A stretch of DNA of 45,693 nt from a virus (Duplodnaviria; Heunggongvirae; Uroviricota; Caudoviricetes). Below are positions 14,913-45,317 of this stretch, one piece after another (the stretch's first letter is position 1; each line of letters begins with the position of its first letter). The notes beneath the pieces were generated by a model. That model had not been told where the DNA came from. It did no database searches and saw only the letters and a program-made list of their open reading frames with translations. The position numbers were made by a program, and so were the translations under genes. The stretch lies in IMG/VR virus record IMGVR_UViG_2711768011_000016. One strand, given 5' to 3'.

Positions 14913-15220
14913 NNNNNNNNNNNNNNNNNNNNNNNNNNNNNNNNNNNNNNNNNNNNNNNNNNNNNNNNNNNNNNNNNNNNNNNNNNNNNNNNNNNNNNNN
15001 NNNNNNNNNNNNNNNNNNNNNNNNNNNNNNNNNNNNNNNNNNNNNNNNNNNNNNNNNNNNNNNNNNNNNNNNNNNNNNNNNNNNNNNNNNNNNNNNNNNN
15101 NNNNNNNNNNNNNNNNNNNNNNNNNNNNNNNNNNNNNNNNNNNNNNNNNNNNNNNNNNNNNNNNNNNNNNNNNNNNNNNNNNNNNNNNNNNNNNNNNNNN
15201 NNNNNNNNNNNNNNNNNNNN
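14913..15220. other. assembly gap (run of N)
   Basis: Contiguous N characters. Confidence 1.
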
Positions 15221-39100: not shown

Positions 39101-39566
39101 CGCCAGCGCATCCAGTACGGATTTGGGGACGAAAACCACATCGTCGTTTGATTACGGCACTAAATCCACGAATAACACTGGTGCGCATACCCATAGTTTA
39201 AGTGGCAGCACGAATGCAGCTGGTAATCACAGCCATAGAGATGGCCGTCGATTTAACCCCAGTGTTTTTAAAGATACTTATCAATATGGTTATACAAGCT
39301 CAGGTCAAAATACCTGGGGTGTACAAGGCTCAGTAGGTATGTCTACGGGGTGGTTAGCGAATACCAGTACAGATGGTAATCATAGCCACTCACTGTCCGG
39401 CACAGCAGCATCTGCAGGTGCACACGCGCATACTGTCGGTATTGGTGCTCATACGCACTCCGTTGCGATTGGTTCACATGGACATACCATCACCGTTAAC
39501 GCTGCGGGTAACGCGGAAAACACCGTCAAAAACATCGCATTTAACTATATTGTGAGGCTTGCATAA
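36168..39566 (+). CDS. stf: side tail fibre protein Stf
   Basis: [27 protein letters not shown]-terminus, Ala/Ser/Thr-rich tail-fibre repeats (AAKTSETNA x4), C-terminal HxH repeats. Confidence 0.85.
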
Positions 39567-40143
39567 TGGCATTCAGAATGAGTGAACAACCACGGACCAT
39601 AAAAATTTATAATCTGCTGACCGGAACTAATGAATTTATTGGTGAAGGTGACGCATATATTCCGCCTCATACAGGTCTGCCAGCAAACAGTACCTATATT
39701 GCACCGCCAGATATTCCGGCTGGCTTTGTGGCTGTTTTCAACAGTGATGAGGCATCGTGGCATCTCGTTGAAGACCATCGGGGTAAAACGGTTTATGACG
39801 TAGCGTCAGGGGACGCGTTATTTATTTCTGAACTCGGTCCGTTACCGGAAAATGTTACCTGGTTATCCCCGGAAGGGGAGTTTCAGAAGTGGAACGGCAC
39901 AGCCTGGGTGAAGGATACGGAAGCAGAAAAACTGTTCCGGATCCGGGAGGCGGAAGAAACAAAAAACAGCCTGATGCAGGTAGCCAGTGAGCATATAGCG
40001 CCACTTCAGGATGCTGTAGATCTGGAGATCGCAACGGAGGAAGAAAACTCGTTGCTGGAAGCCTGGAAGAAGTATCGGGTGTTGCTGAACCGTGTTGATA
40101 CATCAACTGCACCTGATATTGAGTGGCCTGCGGTCCCTGTTAT
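39566..40143 (+). CDS. tfa: tail fibre assembly protein Tfa (3' end lost in gap)
   Basis: Start overlaps the stf stop (TAATG); 192 codons read before the N run. Confidence 0.8.
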
Positions 40144-40555
40144 NNNNNNNNNNNNNNNNNNNNNNNNNNNNNNNNNNNNNNNNNNNNNNNNNNNNNNNNN
40201 NNNNNNNNNNNNNNNNNNNNNNNNNNNNNNNNNNNNNNNNNNNNNNNNNNNNNNNNNNNNNNNNNNNNNNNNNNNNNNNNNNNNNNNNNNNNNNNNNNNN
40301 NNNNNNNNNNNNNNNNNNNNNNNNNNNNNNNNNNNNNNNNNNNNNNNNNNNNNNNNNNNNNNNNNNNNNNNNNNNNNNNNNNNNNNNNNNNNNNNNNNNN
40401 NNNNNNNNNNNNNNNNNNNNNNNNNNNNNNNNNNNNNNNNNNNNNNNNNNNNNNNNNNNNNNNNNNNNNNNNNNNNNNNNNNNNNNNNNNNNNNNNNNNN
40501 NNNNNNNNNNNNNNNNNNNNNNNNNNNNNNNNNNNNNNNNNNNNNNNNNNNNNNN
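40144..40555. other. assembly gap (run of N)
   Basis: Contiguous N characters. Confidence 1.
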
Positions 40556-40601
40556 TTGTGATATGCCGCAGCAACTTGTCATGGCAGGATACTGCGGCTG
40601 A
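40556..40601 (+). CDS. 3' end of an unidentified CDS interrupted by the gap
   Basis: Open frame reading ...CDMPQQLVMAGYCG then TGA; the stop sits inside a hairpin (gccgcag ... ctgcggc). Confidence 0.25.
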
Positions 40602-40662
40602 TTTGTGAATTTAAATAGTGTGTTTATTGCTTTATATATAAAGGATTTAATGGATTACATAT

Positions 40663-42033
40663 CTATGATATCCCTGAAATGTCCTCTTCAAGCTCTTTTA
40701 CTGATTTCGCAATTTTAAATTTAAATTTTCTCTCTATTTCACTATTGCTAAGTTTTTTTTCATTCTCTTTCCCTATCCACATAGAAACAATTTCTCGTTT
40801 CTGAGATATATGTAGATTGTCAAAGTTAGGTATGTATTTAAAAGTCTCCGCTCTACCCCTGCGGAGTTCATAGAAAGTTTTAATCAAAGACTTTGGTTTT
40901 ATTTCTGATGAAAGGCCGAATCGGCGGATAAGATTATTGATCGTATGATTAACAGCTCGAAGTTGAGCTGTTGACGTTATTTGTGAGAAGTACGATACCC
41001 ATCCCAATCGTTTACCTTCAAACACACATCCCGTAATTCTAAGATTTAGTTTCCACTGACAATATGCAACAGCTCGTTCTTTATCGCGCTTATTTTTAGC
41101 TTGTAGTAGAGCGTGTCTATATGCAGTAAAAATTTTTGCTAAGGATGACTCAAATCTAAGAATGCTCTCATGTTTTATCAATAATTCTCGATTTTTTATG
41201 TGGTAGCCCAAAAAGTTGAAACTTTCATCCAAGCTGCCTACTTTGGATTTTGAGTTCTCTTCATTTAATGGATGTGGGTTTAAATTTAATGATTGAAGCT
41301 TATCAATGATATGAGAAGCTATTTTTGTTGCTTGATATTTTGGTGTTAAAATAAGAATGTCATCAACGTATCGCATGTACCATATGTCATGCATTTTATT
41401 GATTTCATCATCGAAATTAGATAGTGATATTTCAGCTAAAATGTTTGATATCGCTAATCCCTGAGGTACTCCTCTGGTATTATTAGGGATACCTTTGCTT
41501 CCTGTGGTTCCACTTACAGTAGGCACGATTAATGATGATGTTATTAACTGTCTAATTTCTTTTTTTCTAATTTTATTTTTTATTGCATTAATTATCAATT
41601 TATGTTCAATTGAAGGATAGAAACTTTTAAGATCTATTTTTGCATATTCAGCATATAGACTGTTGTTTAATGCTTCTTTCAATGAGTCAATTACTGTATG
41701 TGGTAGTTTTAATCTGGACTTAGGATATATTTCCGTAAGGCATTCACAGAGAGCTCTAAGAGTAATTCTGTCCCTAGCAGTTGGTATGGAAATCTGTCTG
41801 GGTGTAGAGTTAGCGCCTTTAGATATTAATTTTTCTTTATATGCTGTAAATTTGTAATTGCCAGAATTAACCTTTTCAAAAATGAAAGTGATCTCATTTT
41901 TTATTGTCAAATCAAGTTTTGATGGGCGAATCCGATCTATGCCAATCGCTCCTGATTCTTTGATTTTTTCAGAGTATACTTTTAGAAGATTTTTTTTCGA
42001 GAATGACTTTTTAAAAATTCTGCTTGCAGTCAT
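40663..42033 (-). CDS. reverse transcriptase (defence-associated, UG/Abi- or retron-like; family unassigned)
   Basis: RT motifs readable in the translation: RQISIPTARDRITLRAL, IDLKSFYPSI, GVPQGLAISNILAEI, YMRYVDDILIL (YVDD), FLGYHI; about 200-aa C-terminal extension; visibly AT-rich; first ATG at 42033 (TTG at 42039). Confidence 0.8.
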   Translation of the reverse strand: MTASRIFKKSFSKKNLLKVYSEKIKESGAIGIDRIRPSKLDLTIKNEITFIFEKVNSGNYKFTAYKEKLISKGANSTPRQISIPTARDRITLRALCECLTEIYPKSRLKLPHTVIDSLKEALNNSLYAEYAKIDLKSFYPSIEHKLIINAIKNKIRKKEIRQLITSSLIVPTVSGTTGSKGIPNNTRGVPQGLAISNILAEISLSNFDDEINKMHDIWYMRYVDDILILTPKYQATKIASHIIDKLQSLNLNPHPLNEENSKSKVGSLDESFNFLGYHIKNRELLIKHESILRFESSLAKIFTAYRHALLQAKNKRDKERAVAYCQWKLNLRITGCVFEGKRLGWVSYFSQITSTAQLRAVNHTINNLIRRFGLSSEIKPKSLIKTFYELRRGRAETFKYIPNFDNLHISQKREIVSMWIGKENEKKLSNSEIERKFKFKIAKSVKELEEDISGIS

Positions 42034-42562
42034 AGTCAATCCAAAGATATATTAATGGGAGTATATAAAGTGCGGCAGTAATAAATATTCGAAGTAATAT
42101 CCATAAAATAACAATTATTTTTTCTTTTTGTGTGGGGATCCTCGTCTTAAGTCCAACTTGAGTTACCCTTGAAATTTTATCATCTATGTCACGGTGATTC
42201 TCAACCTCATTGAGCAAATTAAAATATTTTTCTTTCTGTTCAAGAGATAACTGTTGACTGGTGGTAATGTCAAAATAGAGTCGCTGTAGTGCAATATAAT
42301 TCCTTCTCATGGCTATTGCTCGACCACGAAAATCTAGGTTAGATACGATCAGAGAAATACCCAGTAGAGCCACTGAAAGTATCGCCGCAACGACATCTGT
42401 ATTATCTCCTAGAACCTTTGGAAATCGCAACGTTACAATTGAAAGTACCGCACTCAATATAGCATACCAAACGAGGATAAATTGAGAGTGTTTTTCAAGC
42501 CATTCTAGTCGATGGTGCGCTTGGATACGTGCTTTATATGTAAACCAAATATTGTCATGCAT
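42011..42562 (-). CDS. multi-pass membrane protein, SLATT-like (putative effector partner of the RT)
   Basis: 183 aa with at least two hydrophobic helices after a short basic N-terminus and another near the C-terminus; 3' end overlaps the RT start. Confidence 0.55.
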   Translation of the reverse strand: MHDNIWFTYKARIQAHHRLEWLEKHSQFILVWYAILSAVLSIVTLRFPKVLGDNTDVVAAILSVALLGISLIVSNLDFRGRAIAMRRNYIALQRLYFDITTSQQLSLEQKEKYFNLLNEVENHRDIDDKISRVTQVGLKTRIPTQKEKIIVILWILLRIFITAALYILPLIYLWIDYDCKQNF

Positions 42563-42784
42563 AAAAGATCCTTTTTAAAAGCGGAAGGGGCAGGATATAT
42601 TGGAACCGTTGAACATCCTGCCCGGCAGGATCAGTGAGCATAAGCTCAACAGTAAAATATTACTGTTCATTATCAGAGCCGCCCTTGCATGCGCAAGAGG
42701 AAAAACCTGCCCCATCCCTTTGAATTATTACAATTTAATGATCTTAAAGTCAATACAAGTGAATGGTGTCCAGAGATGATGAAC

Positions 42785-43033
42785 TTAATGAACAAACCAC
42801 TCGTCAGCAGACTCCCAGGTATCTTTCAGAGTCTCCTGAACAAAAGTTTTAGCTGAATCTTTATCAGCGGTGCGCGTAACAGAAAGGCCATCGTTGCTGG
42901 TGGCTTTTACGATCACTTCTACATCGTCATAACGTTTACTGATGCGTCGGGTTAATTCTTCCTTTAACGCATCCACAGCACCGGTTGGCATTTTAGTCAT
43001 TTTTTCTTTGGCTATGCAGATTTCAATACGCAT
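42785..43033 (-). CDS. dinI: DinI-like SOS-inducible protein
   Basis: 82 aa; MRIEICIAK ... [15 protein letters not shown] matches the DinI family end to end. Confidence 0.75.
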
Positions 43034-43045
43034 AAAAGTCCCCTA

Positions 43046-43098
43046 CACTGTATTTGTATACAGTATTATTTTTAACTGTATGGATAAACAGTGTCAAG
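43046..43098 (-). promoter_or_regulatory. SOS promoter with two LexA boxes upstream of the dinI-like gene
   Basis: CTGT-N8-ACAG boxes at 43046-43065 and 43074-43093; on the minus strand TTGACA-17nt-TAAAAT with the boxes in the spacer and just downstream of the -10. Confidence 0.7.
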
Positions 43099-44191
43099 AG
43101 GTCTTATTTCTGCTCCTTTGGAGTTCTTCAAAACGATTATGTAAAGATTTCGGATACAGTTCGGTATATACCTGCCATAGCACGTTTAATGAACGATGCC
43201 CTGTAACCTGAGCGACTTCCTCAATACTAAAACCAGCCTCAAATAAGCGACTTGCCCCTTCTCTACGCAAATCATGGTATCTCAGATCTTTAATACCTAA
43301 TTTGCTTCTTACCCTCTGAAATCCTGCGGTAACAGAAGTGCTGTTATATGGAAAAATGAATTCTGATTTTTTGGGTTGTCGCTGGACGATATCCCAGGCT
43401 TCCCCAAGCAAGGCAACTTTCATATGGTTGCCTTCCTTTTTACGTGGATCTTTCCTGTCTCTTACTAGTATAGATTTTTGTTCCTGGTCGAGATCTTCCC
43501 ATCGTAACCGGCATACTTCTCCGATTCGCATACAGGACCACACAGAAAATTTGAGGATATCAACGAACGGAATTTTTGAGCATTTATGAGTAGATCGTTG
43601 TTGAAGGCCTTCAATGAGCATGTTCAGTTCATCAGATGCTGGTCTACGATTACGACGGTTTGATTTACCAATCAAACCGAGTTTAAGTAGATATGGACGA
43701 GCGCTTTTCGCCGGGTTTGATGTGTAATTGATTCCGTATACAGGTTTTGCCGCATCCAGAACACTGCCAAGATAACTAACATCGTGGCTGACTGTTGCTG
43801 GGCCTGCACCAGCGTTGTTTCTTAGCCTGCAATGTTCAATTACGTCATTTTCTGTCAGTTCAGATAGTTTGATCGCGGAGATGTCACTATCCATAAGCAG
43901 TTCCAGCACATATCTTTTAGTACGGCCTGCTTTACCTCCGGCATTTGGGTCATTTAAATATTTGTGTAGTAAGTCACGGACTGTAAGTCCGTCAACAGCA
44001 TTTGATGATGGAATGCCATATAGATCTAATTCCATCACTTTCTGTGCGCCCCATGTTTTGGCATGAGCATGTTTAGGGAATGTTTTGCTTTCCCTGTAAG
44101 TGATAACACCTTTTTCTTTGATAATCACATTACAGCGATAGCGTGGTGTGCCATCGGATTTTAGTCGTTTCTCTATGTTATAGTACGCCAT
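43094..44191 (-). CDS. int: tyrosine integrase (dusA-associated phage integrase)
   Basis: 365 aa with the C-terminal catalytic region (HDLRR ... LNVLWQVY); GAGG RBS; directly abuts the 5' end of dusA. Confidence 0.85.
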   Translation of the reverse strand: MAYYNIEKRLKSDGTPRYRCNVIIKEKGVITYRESKTFPKHAHAKTWGAQKVMELDLYGIPSSNAVDGLTVRDLLHKYLNDPNAGGKAGRTKRYVLELLMDSDISAIKLSELTENDVIEHCRLRNNAGAGPATVSHDVSYLGSVLDAAKPVYGINYTSNPAKSARPYLLKLGLIGKSNRRNRRPASDELNMLIEGLQQRSTHKCSKIPFVDILKFSVWSCMRIGEVCRLRWEDLDQEQKSILVRDRKDPRKKEGNHMKVALLGEAWDIVQRQPKKSEFIFPYNSTSVTAGFQRVRSKLGIKDLRYHDLRREGASRLFEAGFSIEEVAQVTGHRSLNVLWQVYTELYPKSLHNRFEELQRSRNKTS

Positions 44192-44279
44192 TACACGACC
44201 TCGTTATTTCGGGTTCCCATAAAGCGTGGGAACCTGTGCGGGAACCTAACGCGAGAAAAATAGCCTGAAATGTTCAAAA

Positions 44280-45317
44280 ATGCACGATAATCCTGAAACA
44301 CAGAAAACTAATCAAACCAGCGTGATGCCTGAAAAAACTGGCGCTTACTGGAGTTCTCGGTTTAGCATTGCTCCTATGCTCGACTGGACGGACAGACATT
44401 GCCGCTATTTCTTGCGTCTGCTTTCCCGCAATACGTTGCTGTATACCGAAATGGTGACCACAGGGGCGATTATTCACGGTAAAGGTGATTACCTGGCGTA
44501 CAGTGAAGAAGAACATCCGGTAGCGTTGCAACTCGGCGGTAGCGATCCGGCGGCGCTGGCACAGTGTGCGAAGCTGGCAGAAGCGCGTGGATATGATGAG
44601 ATCAACCTGAATGTCGGCTGCCCGTCTGACCGGGTGCAGAACGGCATGTTTGGTGCGTGTCTGATGGGTAATGCGCAGCTGGTTGCCGACTGCGTGAAAG
44701 CGATGCGCGATGTGGTGTCGATTCCAGTGACGGTGAAAACGCGTATTGGCATCGATGACCAGGACAGCTATGAATTTCTCTGCGATTTCATCAACACCGT
44801 TTCCGGCAAAGGCGAGTGTGAGATGTTTATCATCCACGCACGTAAAGCCTGGCTTTCGGGGTTAAGCCCGAAAGAAAACCGTGAAATCCCGCCACTCGAT
44901 TATCCGCGTGTGTATCAACTGAAGCGTGACTTTCCGCATCTGACAATGTCGATTAACGGTGGTATCAAGTCGCTGGAAGAGGCCAAAGCACACCTGCAAC
45001 ATATGGATGGCGTGATGGTCGGGCGCGAGGCGTATCAGAATCCGGGTATTCTGGCGGCGGTAGACCGGGAGATCTTTGGTTCCTCGGATACCGATGCCGA
45101 TCCGGTGGCGGTAGTGCGCGCCATGTATCCGTACATTGAGCGTGAACTCAGCCAGGGGACGTATCTCGGCCATATTACCCGGCATATGTTGGGCTTGTTC
45201 CAGGGTATTCCTGGCGCGCGGCAGTGGCGGCGTTATTTAAGTGAAAATGCCCATAAAGCGGGTGCAGACATTAATGTGCTGGAACACGCGCTCAAACTGG
45301 TGGCGGATAAGCGTTAA
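44280..45317 (+). CDS. dusA: tRNA-dihydrouridine synthase A (host gene, 5' end likely prophage-derived)
   Basis: 345-aa ORF; from about residue 30 onward it matches E. coli DusA as I recall it ([16 protein letters not shown] ...). Confidence 0.9.

Follow-up and report, generated by a model that had tools for sequence, protein, structure and literature searches.

The virus record IMGVR_UViG_2711768011_000016 (Caudoviricetes), analysed here as a single stretch of 45,693 nucleotides (nt) and called the window, raises the question of which system is encoded by two overlapping minus-strand genes at positions 40602–42784, one for a reverse transcriptase (RT) and one for a SLATT membrane protein. 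Our analysis suggests, with a probability of about 0.93, that the locus is a complete tripartite DRT10 (UG17) anti-phage system of the Eco3DRT10 type, as judged from its sequence. The system is already known, and the window carries a near-identical allele of one that has been published and characterised both mechanistically and structurally. DRT10 was described by Tang et al. in October 2025 (PMC12632851) and by Sanchez-Nieto et al. in April 2026 (10.64898/2026.04.29.721553), and a third preprint by Ramirez et al. followed in June 2026 (10.64898/2026.06.29.735271). An earlier reading made from the letters alone (the sequence-only reading) was right to call the genes an anti-phage pair of RT and SLATT membrane effector, which agrees with the matches to RT_UG17 and RTasSLATT of PADLOC and to SLATT_5 of Pfam. 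It could not place the pair in a named family; these PADLOC matches and the 97–98% identity to Eco3DRT10 now place it in UG17/DRT10. It also overlooked the essential third component, a template non-coding RNA (ncRNA) of 137 nt lying in what it had called native upstream DNA.

The assignment of the RT is carried by the PADLOC profile RT_UG17, which matches over its whole length (E 1.1e-158, 526.6 bits, profile positions 1–429 of 429). The runner-up family is Drt3a (E 3e-38), and the matches to Drt2 (E 1e-24) and Drt9 (E 6.6e-20, partial) are weaker still. Both the YVDD and the PQG motif (the latter at residue 190) reported earlier are present in the translation, and Pfam RVT_1 matches with E 7e-21. 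Eco3DRT10 from E. coli 703491 (RT OKX54664; sequences from the supplement of PMC12632851) was taken as reference. The RT of the window is identical to it at 391 of 399 compared residues (98%), and the SLATT protein at 178 of 183 (97%; 5 residues differ). YVDD, R371, K385, Y388 and S456 are found in both RTs and are invariant among 28 homologues. It has been reported that R371, K385 and Y388 are essential for boundary setting and S456 for priming (PMC12632851; 10.64898/2026.06.29.735271), with Ser456 of Eco3DRT10 serving as the protein-priming residue (PMC12632851). The open reading frame (ORF) of the RT spans 40663..42039(-) and gives 458 residues if a TTG start is taken, whereas the ATG at 42033, the start used in homologues and in RefSeq, gives 456; the overlap with the SLATT gene is 23 nt (29 nt with the TTG start). 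The OKX54664 record is reported to have two spurious N-terminal residues (PMC12632851), which is exactly the TTG/ATG situation of the window.

An AlphaFold2 model of the RT, made with the 28 homologues (mean predicted local distance difference test score 84), aligns in Foldseek over 420–460 columns with full-length group II intron RT, G2L4 RT and DRT9 RT. Because of this full-length alignment with known RTs, the region following the palm is modelled as containing a thumb-like helical domain, then a C-terminal helix (residues 430–452) and then the terminal serine. The C-terminal extension had earlier been read as having no obvious thumb, which does not agree with these alignments or with the published cryo-EM structure, where fingers, palm, thumb and C-terminal domain have been described. 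A sequence search of the PDB copy used here returned no DRT10 chain, the nearest entries being group II intron RTs (6ar1, E 4e-14).

The 183-residue protein matches Pfam SLATT_5 with E 1.3e-28 (100.1 bits against a cut-off of 29.5) and PADLOC RTasSLATT with E 1.5e-56. Its Kyte-Doolittle hydrophobic segments lie at residues of about 25–48, 54–79 and 146–175. The hydrophobic segments and SLATT identity proposed by the sequence-only reading are thus borne out, while the basic N-terminus that it also described is basic only weakly (4 K/R against 3 D/E in residues 1–26). The start codon of the gene is preceded by a Shine-Dalgarno sequence AAAGGA and is located 18 nt past the 3' end of the ncRNA. 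An ORF of SLATT size that ends at the start of the RT is present in 39 of 41 related loci.

DRT10 requires an ncRNA that is encoded upstream of SLATT (PMC12632851), and the window has one in this place, for which the window coordinate equals 42718 minus the RNA position. The predicted fold is made up of a closing stem, SL1 (nt 1–12 paired with 124–135), and four stem-loops, SL2 (19–36), SL3 (51–70), SL4 (71–82) and SL5 (87–103), together with Loop A (37–50) and Loop B (104–123), and has a minimum free energy (MFE) of -57.2 kcal/mol (z -4.58 against shuffles). Landmarks of the Eco3 ncRNA, whose positions were taken from PMC12632851 and 10.64898/2026.06.29.735271, are found here in register: poly-U at U15 and U62, U43 and G44 in Loop A, the G86/G104 pair, the U105-U106 linker, C107, G111, C116, U119 and the A120-U123 linker.

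A covariance model (R1) built from four E. coli alleles was run on 27 fetched loci with an RT that is 50–83% identical, from Xenorhabdus, Photorhabdus, Buttiauxella, Pseudomonas, Stenotrophomonas and Bordetella, and gives in every one of them a full-length match directly upstream of the SLATT ORF; it finds none in loci whose RT is 31–34% identical. This agrees with the published observation that DRT10 ncRNA models work only inside subtypes. Standard pairs occupy 96.3% of the alignment cells against about 50% when partners are slid, a margin that stays large even though the alignment was fitted to the model and so favours structure. Compensatory changes on both sides occur in 24 of 37 pairs, and the observed values are reached by 0 of 500 shuffles. 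The strand opposite to the ncRNA gives a mere weak echo of R1 (25 bits), and Rfam 15, searched at a permissive threshold over 39500–44400, holds no family that matches the ncRNA.

The sigma-70 promoter upstream of the ncRNA has 10 of 12 consensus matches and an extended -10 TG, and its sequence region is unchanged across 7 E. coli alleles. It sets +1 at 42717, which is nt 1 of the published 137-nt RNA numbering, and probably drives the whole operon. Since the SLATT start is separated from the ncRNA by a gap of 18 nt, within which the promoter scan reveals no promoter-like site, SLATT and the RT are probably expressed only when transcription reads through the closing stem and its U4 tail.

Eco3DRT10 and the window have the gene order ncRNA, SLATT, RT in common. 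For comparison at the RNA level, the CE10 allele, which matches the Eco3 RT at all of 397 compared residues, was used to reconstruct the Eco3-type ncRNA. Both ncRNAs are 137 nt long with identical numbering; SL1, SL3, SL4, SL5 and Loop A are identical, and the A' segment CAAU is common to both. The differences are U110C and A112G in the template and one loop or stem-end difference in SL2, so that two of the three differences between the window and the CE10/Eco3 type fall within the 9-nt template. The CE10 allele differs from the window by 11 residues in the RT and 4 in SLATT, with nucleotide divergences of 2.8% and 2.4%, respectively, and has the same dinI neighbour. A tyrosine recombinase adjoins two of the three E. 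coli systems of Tang et al. (PMC12632851).

In Eco3, the template A-B CAAUGAUUC (nt 107–115) and the A' segment CAAU give the product (GAATCATTG)n (PMC12632851). In the window, nt 110 has changed from U to C and nt 112 from A to G. Provided that priming starts at C116 and the geometric stop falls at C107, the predicted product of the window allele is (GAACCGTTG)n and not (GAATCATTG)n. C116 is the published priming position, and the realignment role of A' is likewise taken from the papers (PMC12632851; 10.64898/2026.06.29.735271). A script-based search identifies the A-B-A' pattern as CAA-CGGUUC-CAA at nt 107–118, three nt past SL5, and a direct repeat of at least 3 nt is present in 19 of 20 distinct homologue template loops. 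Because of the two substitutions, only 3 of the 4 nt of perfect homology between A and A' are left, and a wobble takes the place of the fourth. The end of the complementary DNA (cDNA), ...GTTG, would re-pair with C116–A118, and the next base would form a dG:rU wobble with U119 in place of an A:U pair. It has been reported that the fourth A/A' position tolerates a mismatch (PMC12632851).

The mechanism that follows is mostly extrapolated from the published work. SLATT and the RT would be transcribed by read-through from the ncRNA promoter, and their translation may be coupled through the 23-nt overlap. In Eco3DRT10 two RT monomers sit on one ncRNA (PMC12632851; 10.64898/2026.06.29.735271). The monomer at Loop B would use its own C-terminal Ser456 as primer for DNA synthesis opposite C116 and copy back to C107, where the SL5 anchor (the G86-G104 pair, contacted by R371) would halt it. 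The 3' end of the cDNA would then re-pair with A' (nt 116–119), and the cycle of copying, release and realignment would repeat, giving kilobase-long single-stranded tandem repeats that are covalently attached to the RT through the serine. The monomer at Loop A would yield just a short abortive product. Protein-linked tandem-repeat single-stranded DNA has been demonstrated for Eco3DRT10 (PMC12632851) and is presumed for the window allele. Phage defence that needs the RT, SLATT and the ncRNA has been shown for Eco1-3DRT10 (PMC12632851) and for the system of Escherichia sp. E3659 (10.64898/2026.04.29.721553). According to published models, the cDNA level, set by constitutive synthesis, host exonuclease I (SbcB) and a phage protein resembling single-stranded DNA-binding protein (SSB), may gate SLATT and thereby abort the infection. 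Tang et al. found that cDNA falls on infection and proposed that cDNA restrains SLATT (PMC12632851), whereas Sanchez-Nieto et al. found that it rises, that toxicity appears without SbcB and that the trigger is an SSB-like phage protein (10.64898/2026.04.29.721553).

Several points weigh against the assignment as a working DRT10 system or against parts of this mechanism. Expression, cDNA synthesis and defence of the window allele are extrapolated from a relative that is 97–98% identical. The published accounts of cDNA during infection are in conflict, one group reporting a rise and the other a fall, and control of the SLATT pore by cDNA belongs to proposed models. A run of 412 N (40144–40555), which starts within the end of tfa and ends 107 nt short of the RT stop codon, masks the content of the source genome there. 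Finally, with the template substitutions a competing direct repeat of 4 nt arises, GUUC-AACG-GUUC (period 8), which makes the repeat unit uncertain.

This last point leads to a variant in which the same DRT10 system works in another register and yields either (CGTTGAAC)n, with a unit of 8 nt, or a product that is mixed and imprecise. No direct repeat in Loop B of the window is longer than GUUC (nt 104–107)...GUUC (nt 112–115), the same GUUC-AACG-GUUC arrangement occurs in Xenorhabdus (L008) and Photorhabdus (L033), and in Eco1DRT10 cryptic re-annealing sites are reported to lower precision (PMC12632851). However, Eco3 has UUC...UUC at the same place and still yields a precise 9-mer. Moreover, the 5' stop at C107 is set geometrically from SL5, leaving U105-U106 as an uncopied linker, while G104 is engaged in a Hoogsteen pair with G86, priming takes place at C116, and the cDNA 3' end ...GTTG meets a CAA only at nt 116–118. 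We therefore consider the other register quite unlikely and retain the 9-nt repeat as the prediction for the DRT10 allele of the window.

Two explanations for the paired template substitutions were examined and rejected. One is that, by keeping an AAY-G-RUU symmetry, U110C and A112G compensate each other so that the cDNA can pair with itself. This is not borne out, since shuffled sequences fold better than eight repeats of either product (MFE -3.9 and 0 kcal/mol; z +3.5 and +4.8) and homologues do not keep the symmetry. Co-variation of the template with SLATT is contradicted by the ST131 haplotype (strain 4993, L058 at 1539–2090; L005–L007), which has the window template and yet differs from the window at 20 of 183 SLATT residues. 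The codon changes in this SLATT are 20 non-synonymous against 12 synonymous, and the adjacent dinI is annotated as frameshifted. According to published work the template tolerates mutation, and the template differences fit this. It is rather unlikely that the two linked substitutions are functionally meaningful and that the template loop is a site of natural reprogramming. If they were, the reprogramming could serve, for example, as an escape from some phage factor by which the repeat is recognised, and the alleles would differ measurably in product, processivity or phage range.

That the locus has decayed and is carried along without function by a defective prophage appears very improbable. 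Decay is present in neighbouring prophages, where frameshifts affect dinI (ST131 type) and rusA (L052), and no sequenced phage record has the locus. However, both ORFs of the locus are intact in DNA of 34% GC that is rich in stop codons, the catalytic, anchoring and priming residues are all kept, and the ncRNA and promoter are intact. In addition, comparison with the CE10 allele yields more synonymous than non-synonymous changes (26:11 for the RT, 9:4 for SLATT).

That the locus is a retron, in which the RT would make multicopy single-stranded DNA (msDNA) on an msr/msd RNA and the membrane protein would act as effector, is scarcely credible. The general layout of ncRNA, RT and effector does resemble a retron, and several homologues carry the database name 'retron-type reverse transcriptase'. 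However, RT_UG17 is ahead of any other PADLOC family by about 120 orders of magnitude, no retron RT model is among the 25 best PADLOC families listed, and Rfam reveals no retron msr family at E<=10 over 39500–44400. With its five stems, closed shape and internal template of 9 nt, the ncRNA is not an msr-msd with a1/a2 repeats, and the close relative primes from a protein serine and not from the 2'-OH of a branching G (PMC12632851). Because the published product is protein-primed tandem-repeat single-stranded DNA, the msDNA extraction proposed earlier is not a relevant assay. An RT of a group II intron or other mobile retroelement can be dismissed with as little hesitation, as the sequence-only reading had already done: the nearest solved structures are group II intron RTs, in sequence (6ar1) and in Foldseek, and Pfam GIIM matches weakly (E 0.029), but its 14.8 bits lie under the cut-off of 23, no intron RNA domain is detected by Rfam at E<=10 on either strand of 39500–44400, and the RT gene lacks an endonuclease domain, is always accompanied by SLATT and the ncRNA, and occurs in one copy per genome at one site.

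Among the known systems, UG17-A of Escherichia sp. E3659 is also found in Pseudomonadota, with overlapping genes in the order SLATT-RT and, directly before SLATT, an ncRNA of about 140 nt that has its own promoter, and makes tandem-repeat cDNA as is predicted here (10.64898/2026.04.29.721553). It differs in having an RT of 445 residues and a six-stem ncRNA, and in its repeat of 7 nt (AGTAATA), which lies between ACU motifs. Its dependence on SbcB may apply to the window locus by extrapolation. The RT-SLATT locus of H120 (UG17-B), from a prophage of pathogenic E. coli, also combines a UG17 RT with SLATT_5 and makes sbcB essential (10.1101/2020.05.25.114553); in contrast to the window, its gene order is RT then SLATT, and both the prophage and the subtype are different.

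DRT9 (UG28) and DRT2 (UG2), class 2 UG RTs, resemble DRT10 in making repetitive cDNA on an ncRNA template. DRT9 is in addition protein-primed, has an ncRNA of similar shape and contributes chains to the top Foldseek matches of the window RT. However, it makes poly-dA from a U-tract, which is absent from Loop B of the window ncRNA, and it uses tyrosine priming and forms a hexamer, while DRT2 copies a 120-nt template by rolling circle. A single RT ORF lies between tfa and dinI, whereas DRT3 has two RT genes (UG3+UG8).

The interest of DRT10 comes from its being a telomerase-like, protein-primed, repeat-adding immune RT and a proposed bacterial relative of telomerase reverse transcriptase (TERT). 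The published analogy with telomerase (TERT plus telomerase RNA) includes repeat-addition processivity on a short template within the RNA, a segment for alignment and a structure that bounds the template at its 5' side. DRT10 differs from telomerase in priming from a protein and not from a chromosome end, in its 456-residue enzyme, in the 2:1 stoichiometry on the RNA and in its role in defence. The evolutionary link between DRT10 and TERT is a claim of the authors of that work.

Of 5426 complete E. coli genomes, 188 have the ncRNA and 197 match at least part of the locus. All copies are chromosomal, almost always one per genome, and the locus is intact and 100% identical to that of the window in 17 complete genomes. 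When the template region was typed by the 60-mer from SL5 to the 3' end of the ncRNA, the window version was found in 82 of the 188 carriers and the CE10/Eco3 version in 34; sampled members of the other 72 are of the ST131 type, with the window template and one change in the SL5 loop. The studied Eco3 template is accordingly in the minority among E. coli alleles. DRT10 occurs as prophage cargo beside dusA in about 3.5% of complete E. coli genomes, while 50,697 deposited phage genomes gave no match to the locus even at blastn sensitivity. The locus adds no new kind of system. What is new here is a natural template variant, directly comparable with Eco3 in product and defence range, and its frequency. 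RefSeq has no annotation for the ncRNA and still names the genes no more specifically than 'reverse transcriptase domain-containing protein' and 'SLATT domain-containing protein'.

Coordinates of the components are collected in Table 1.

Table 1. Components of the DRT10 locus in the window
Feature	Position	Strand	Basis
Sigma-70 promoter of the ncRNA: TTGACT, 18-nt spacer with TG, AATAAT	42724..42753	-	promoter scan
DRT10 ncRNA, 137 nt	42581..42717	-	fold, covariance model, published landmarks
Predicted template A-B, RNA nt 107–115, 5'-CAACGGUUC-3'	42603..42611	-	register of Eco3DRT10 template CAAUGAUUC
Realignment segment A' (CAAU), RNA nt 116–119	42599..42602	-	invariant in E. coli alleles; role from papers
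SLATT_5 membrane effector gene, 183 aa	42011..42562	-	Pfam SLATT_5; PADLOC RTasSLATT; 178/183 identity to Eco3DRT10 SLATT
UG17 (DRT10) RT gene, 456 aa + stop	40663..42033	-	PADLOC RT_UG17; 391/399 identity to Eco3DRT10 RT; AlphaFold2
Catalytic YVDD, residues 222–225	41359..41370	-	translation; invariant in 28 homologues
C-terminal Ser456 in conserved tail ELEEDISGIS	40666..40668	-	invariant in 28 homologues, down to 59% identity

With respect to its genomic setting, the locus, as read from the sequence, belongs to a lambdoid prophage that is inserted beside dusA and carries it as cargo at the end with the tail-fibre and integrase genes. In the annotation of the 100%-identical E. coli genomes the order of genes is tail fibre, tfa, RT, SLATT, DinI-like protein, tyrosine integrase and dusA. 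Together with the ORF list, this agrees with the earlier description of two overlapping minus-strand genes between tfa and the dinI/int end. The AT-rich island that had been noted is likewise real, with a GC content of 0.345 for 40556–42784 against 0.511 in the rest of the window. The hotspot that had been proposed stands insofar as the slot varies in its cargo; however, non-defence genes are also found there. The dinI-int module beside dusA occurs with at least 80% coverage in 723 genomes, and DRT10 in 188–197.

In related dusA prophages the same slot is filled by three DUF1076 genes in strain 319 (L054 1843–3840), holds a YkgJ-family cysteine-cluster gene in KC-Dl-1 (L056 3530–3859) and is empty in WCHEC025985 (L055 3885–4001). 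The comparison of these prophages indicates that the interval between tfa and dinI is a variable cargo slot and not specifically a defence hotspot.

The flanks of the N run beside the RT are 100% identical in other genomes, which have just 12 nt (the end of tfa plus 5 nt) in place of the 412 N. Another N run, at 14913–15220, has 308 N where a near-identical prophage has 417 nt (essD/ydfR region). Because the lengths of the runs disagree with the reference genomes, both look like scaffold gaps or masks. Within tfa, at 39909–40107(+), there is a full-length match to the small RNA family IS009 of Rfam (224.6 bits, gathering score 117), the one genuine match of the permissive Rfam search over 39500–44400. 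Finally, an inverted repeat GCCGCAG...CTGCGGC within the 107 nt at 40556–40662, followed by T-rich sequence on the plus strand, may be a terminator common to the convergent tfa and RT genes.

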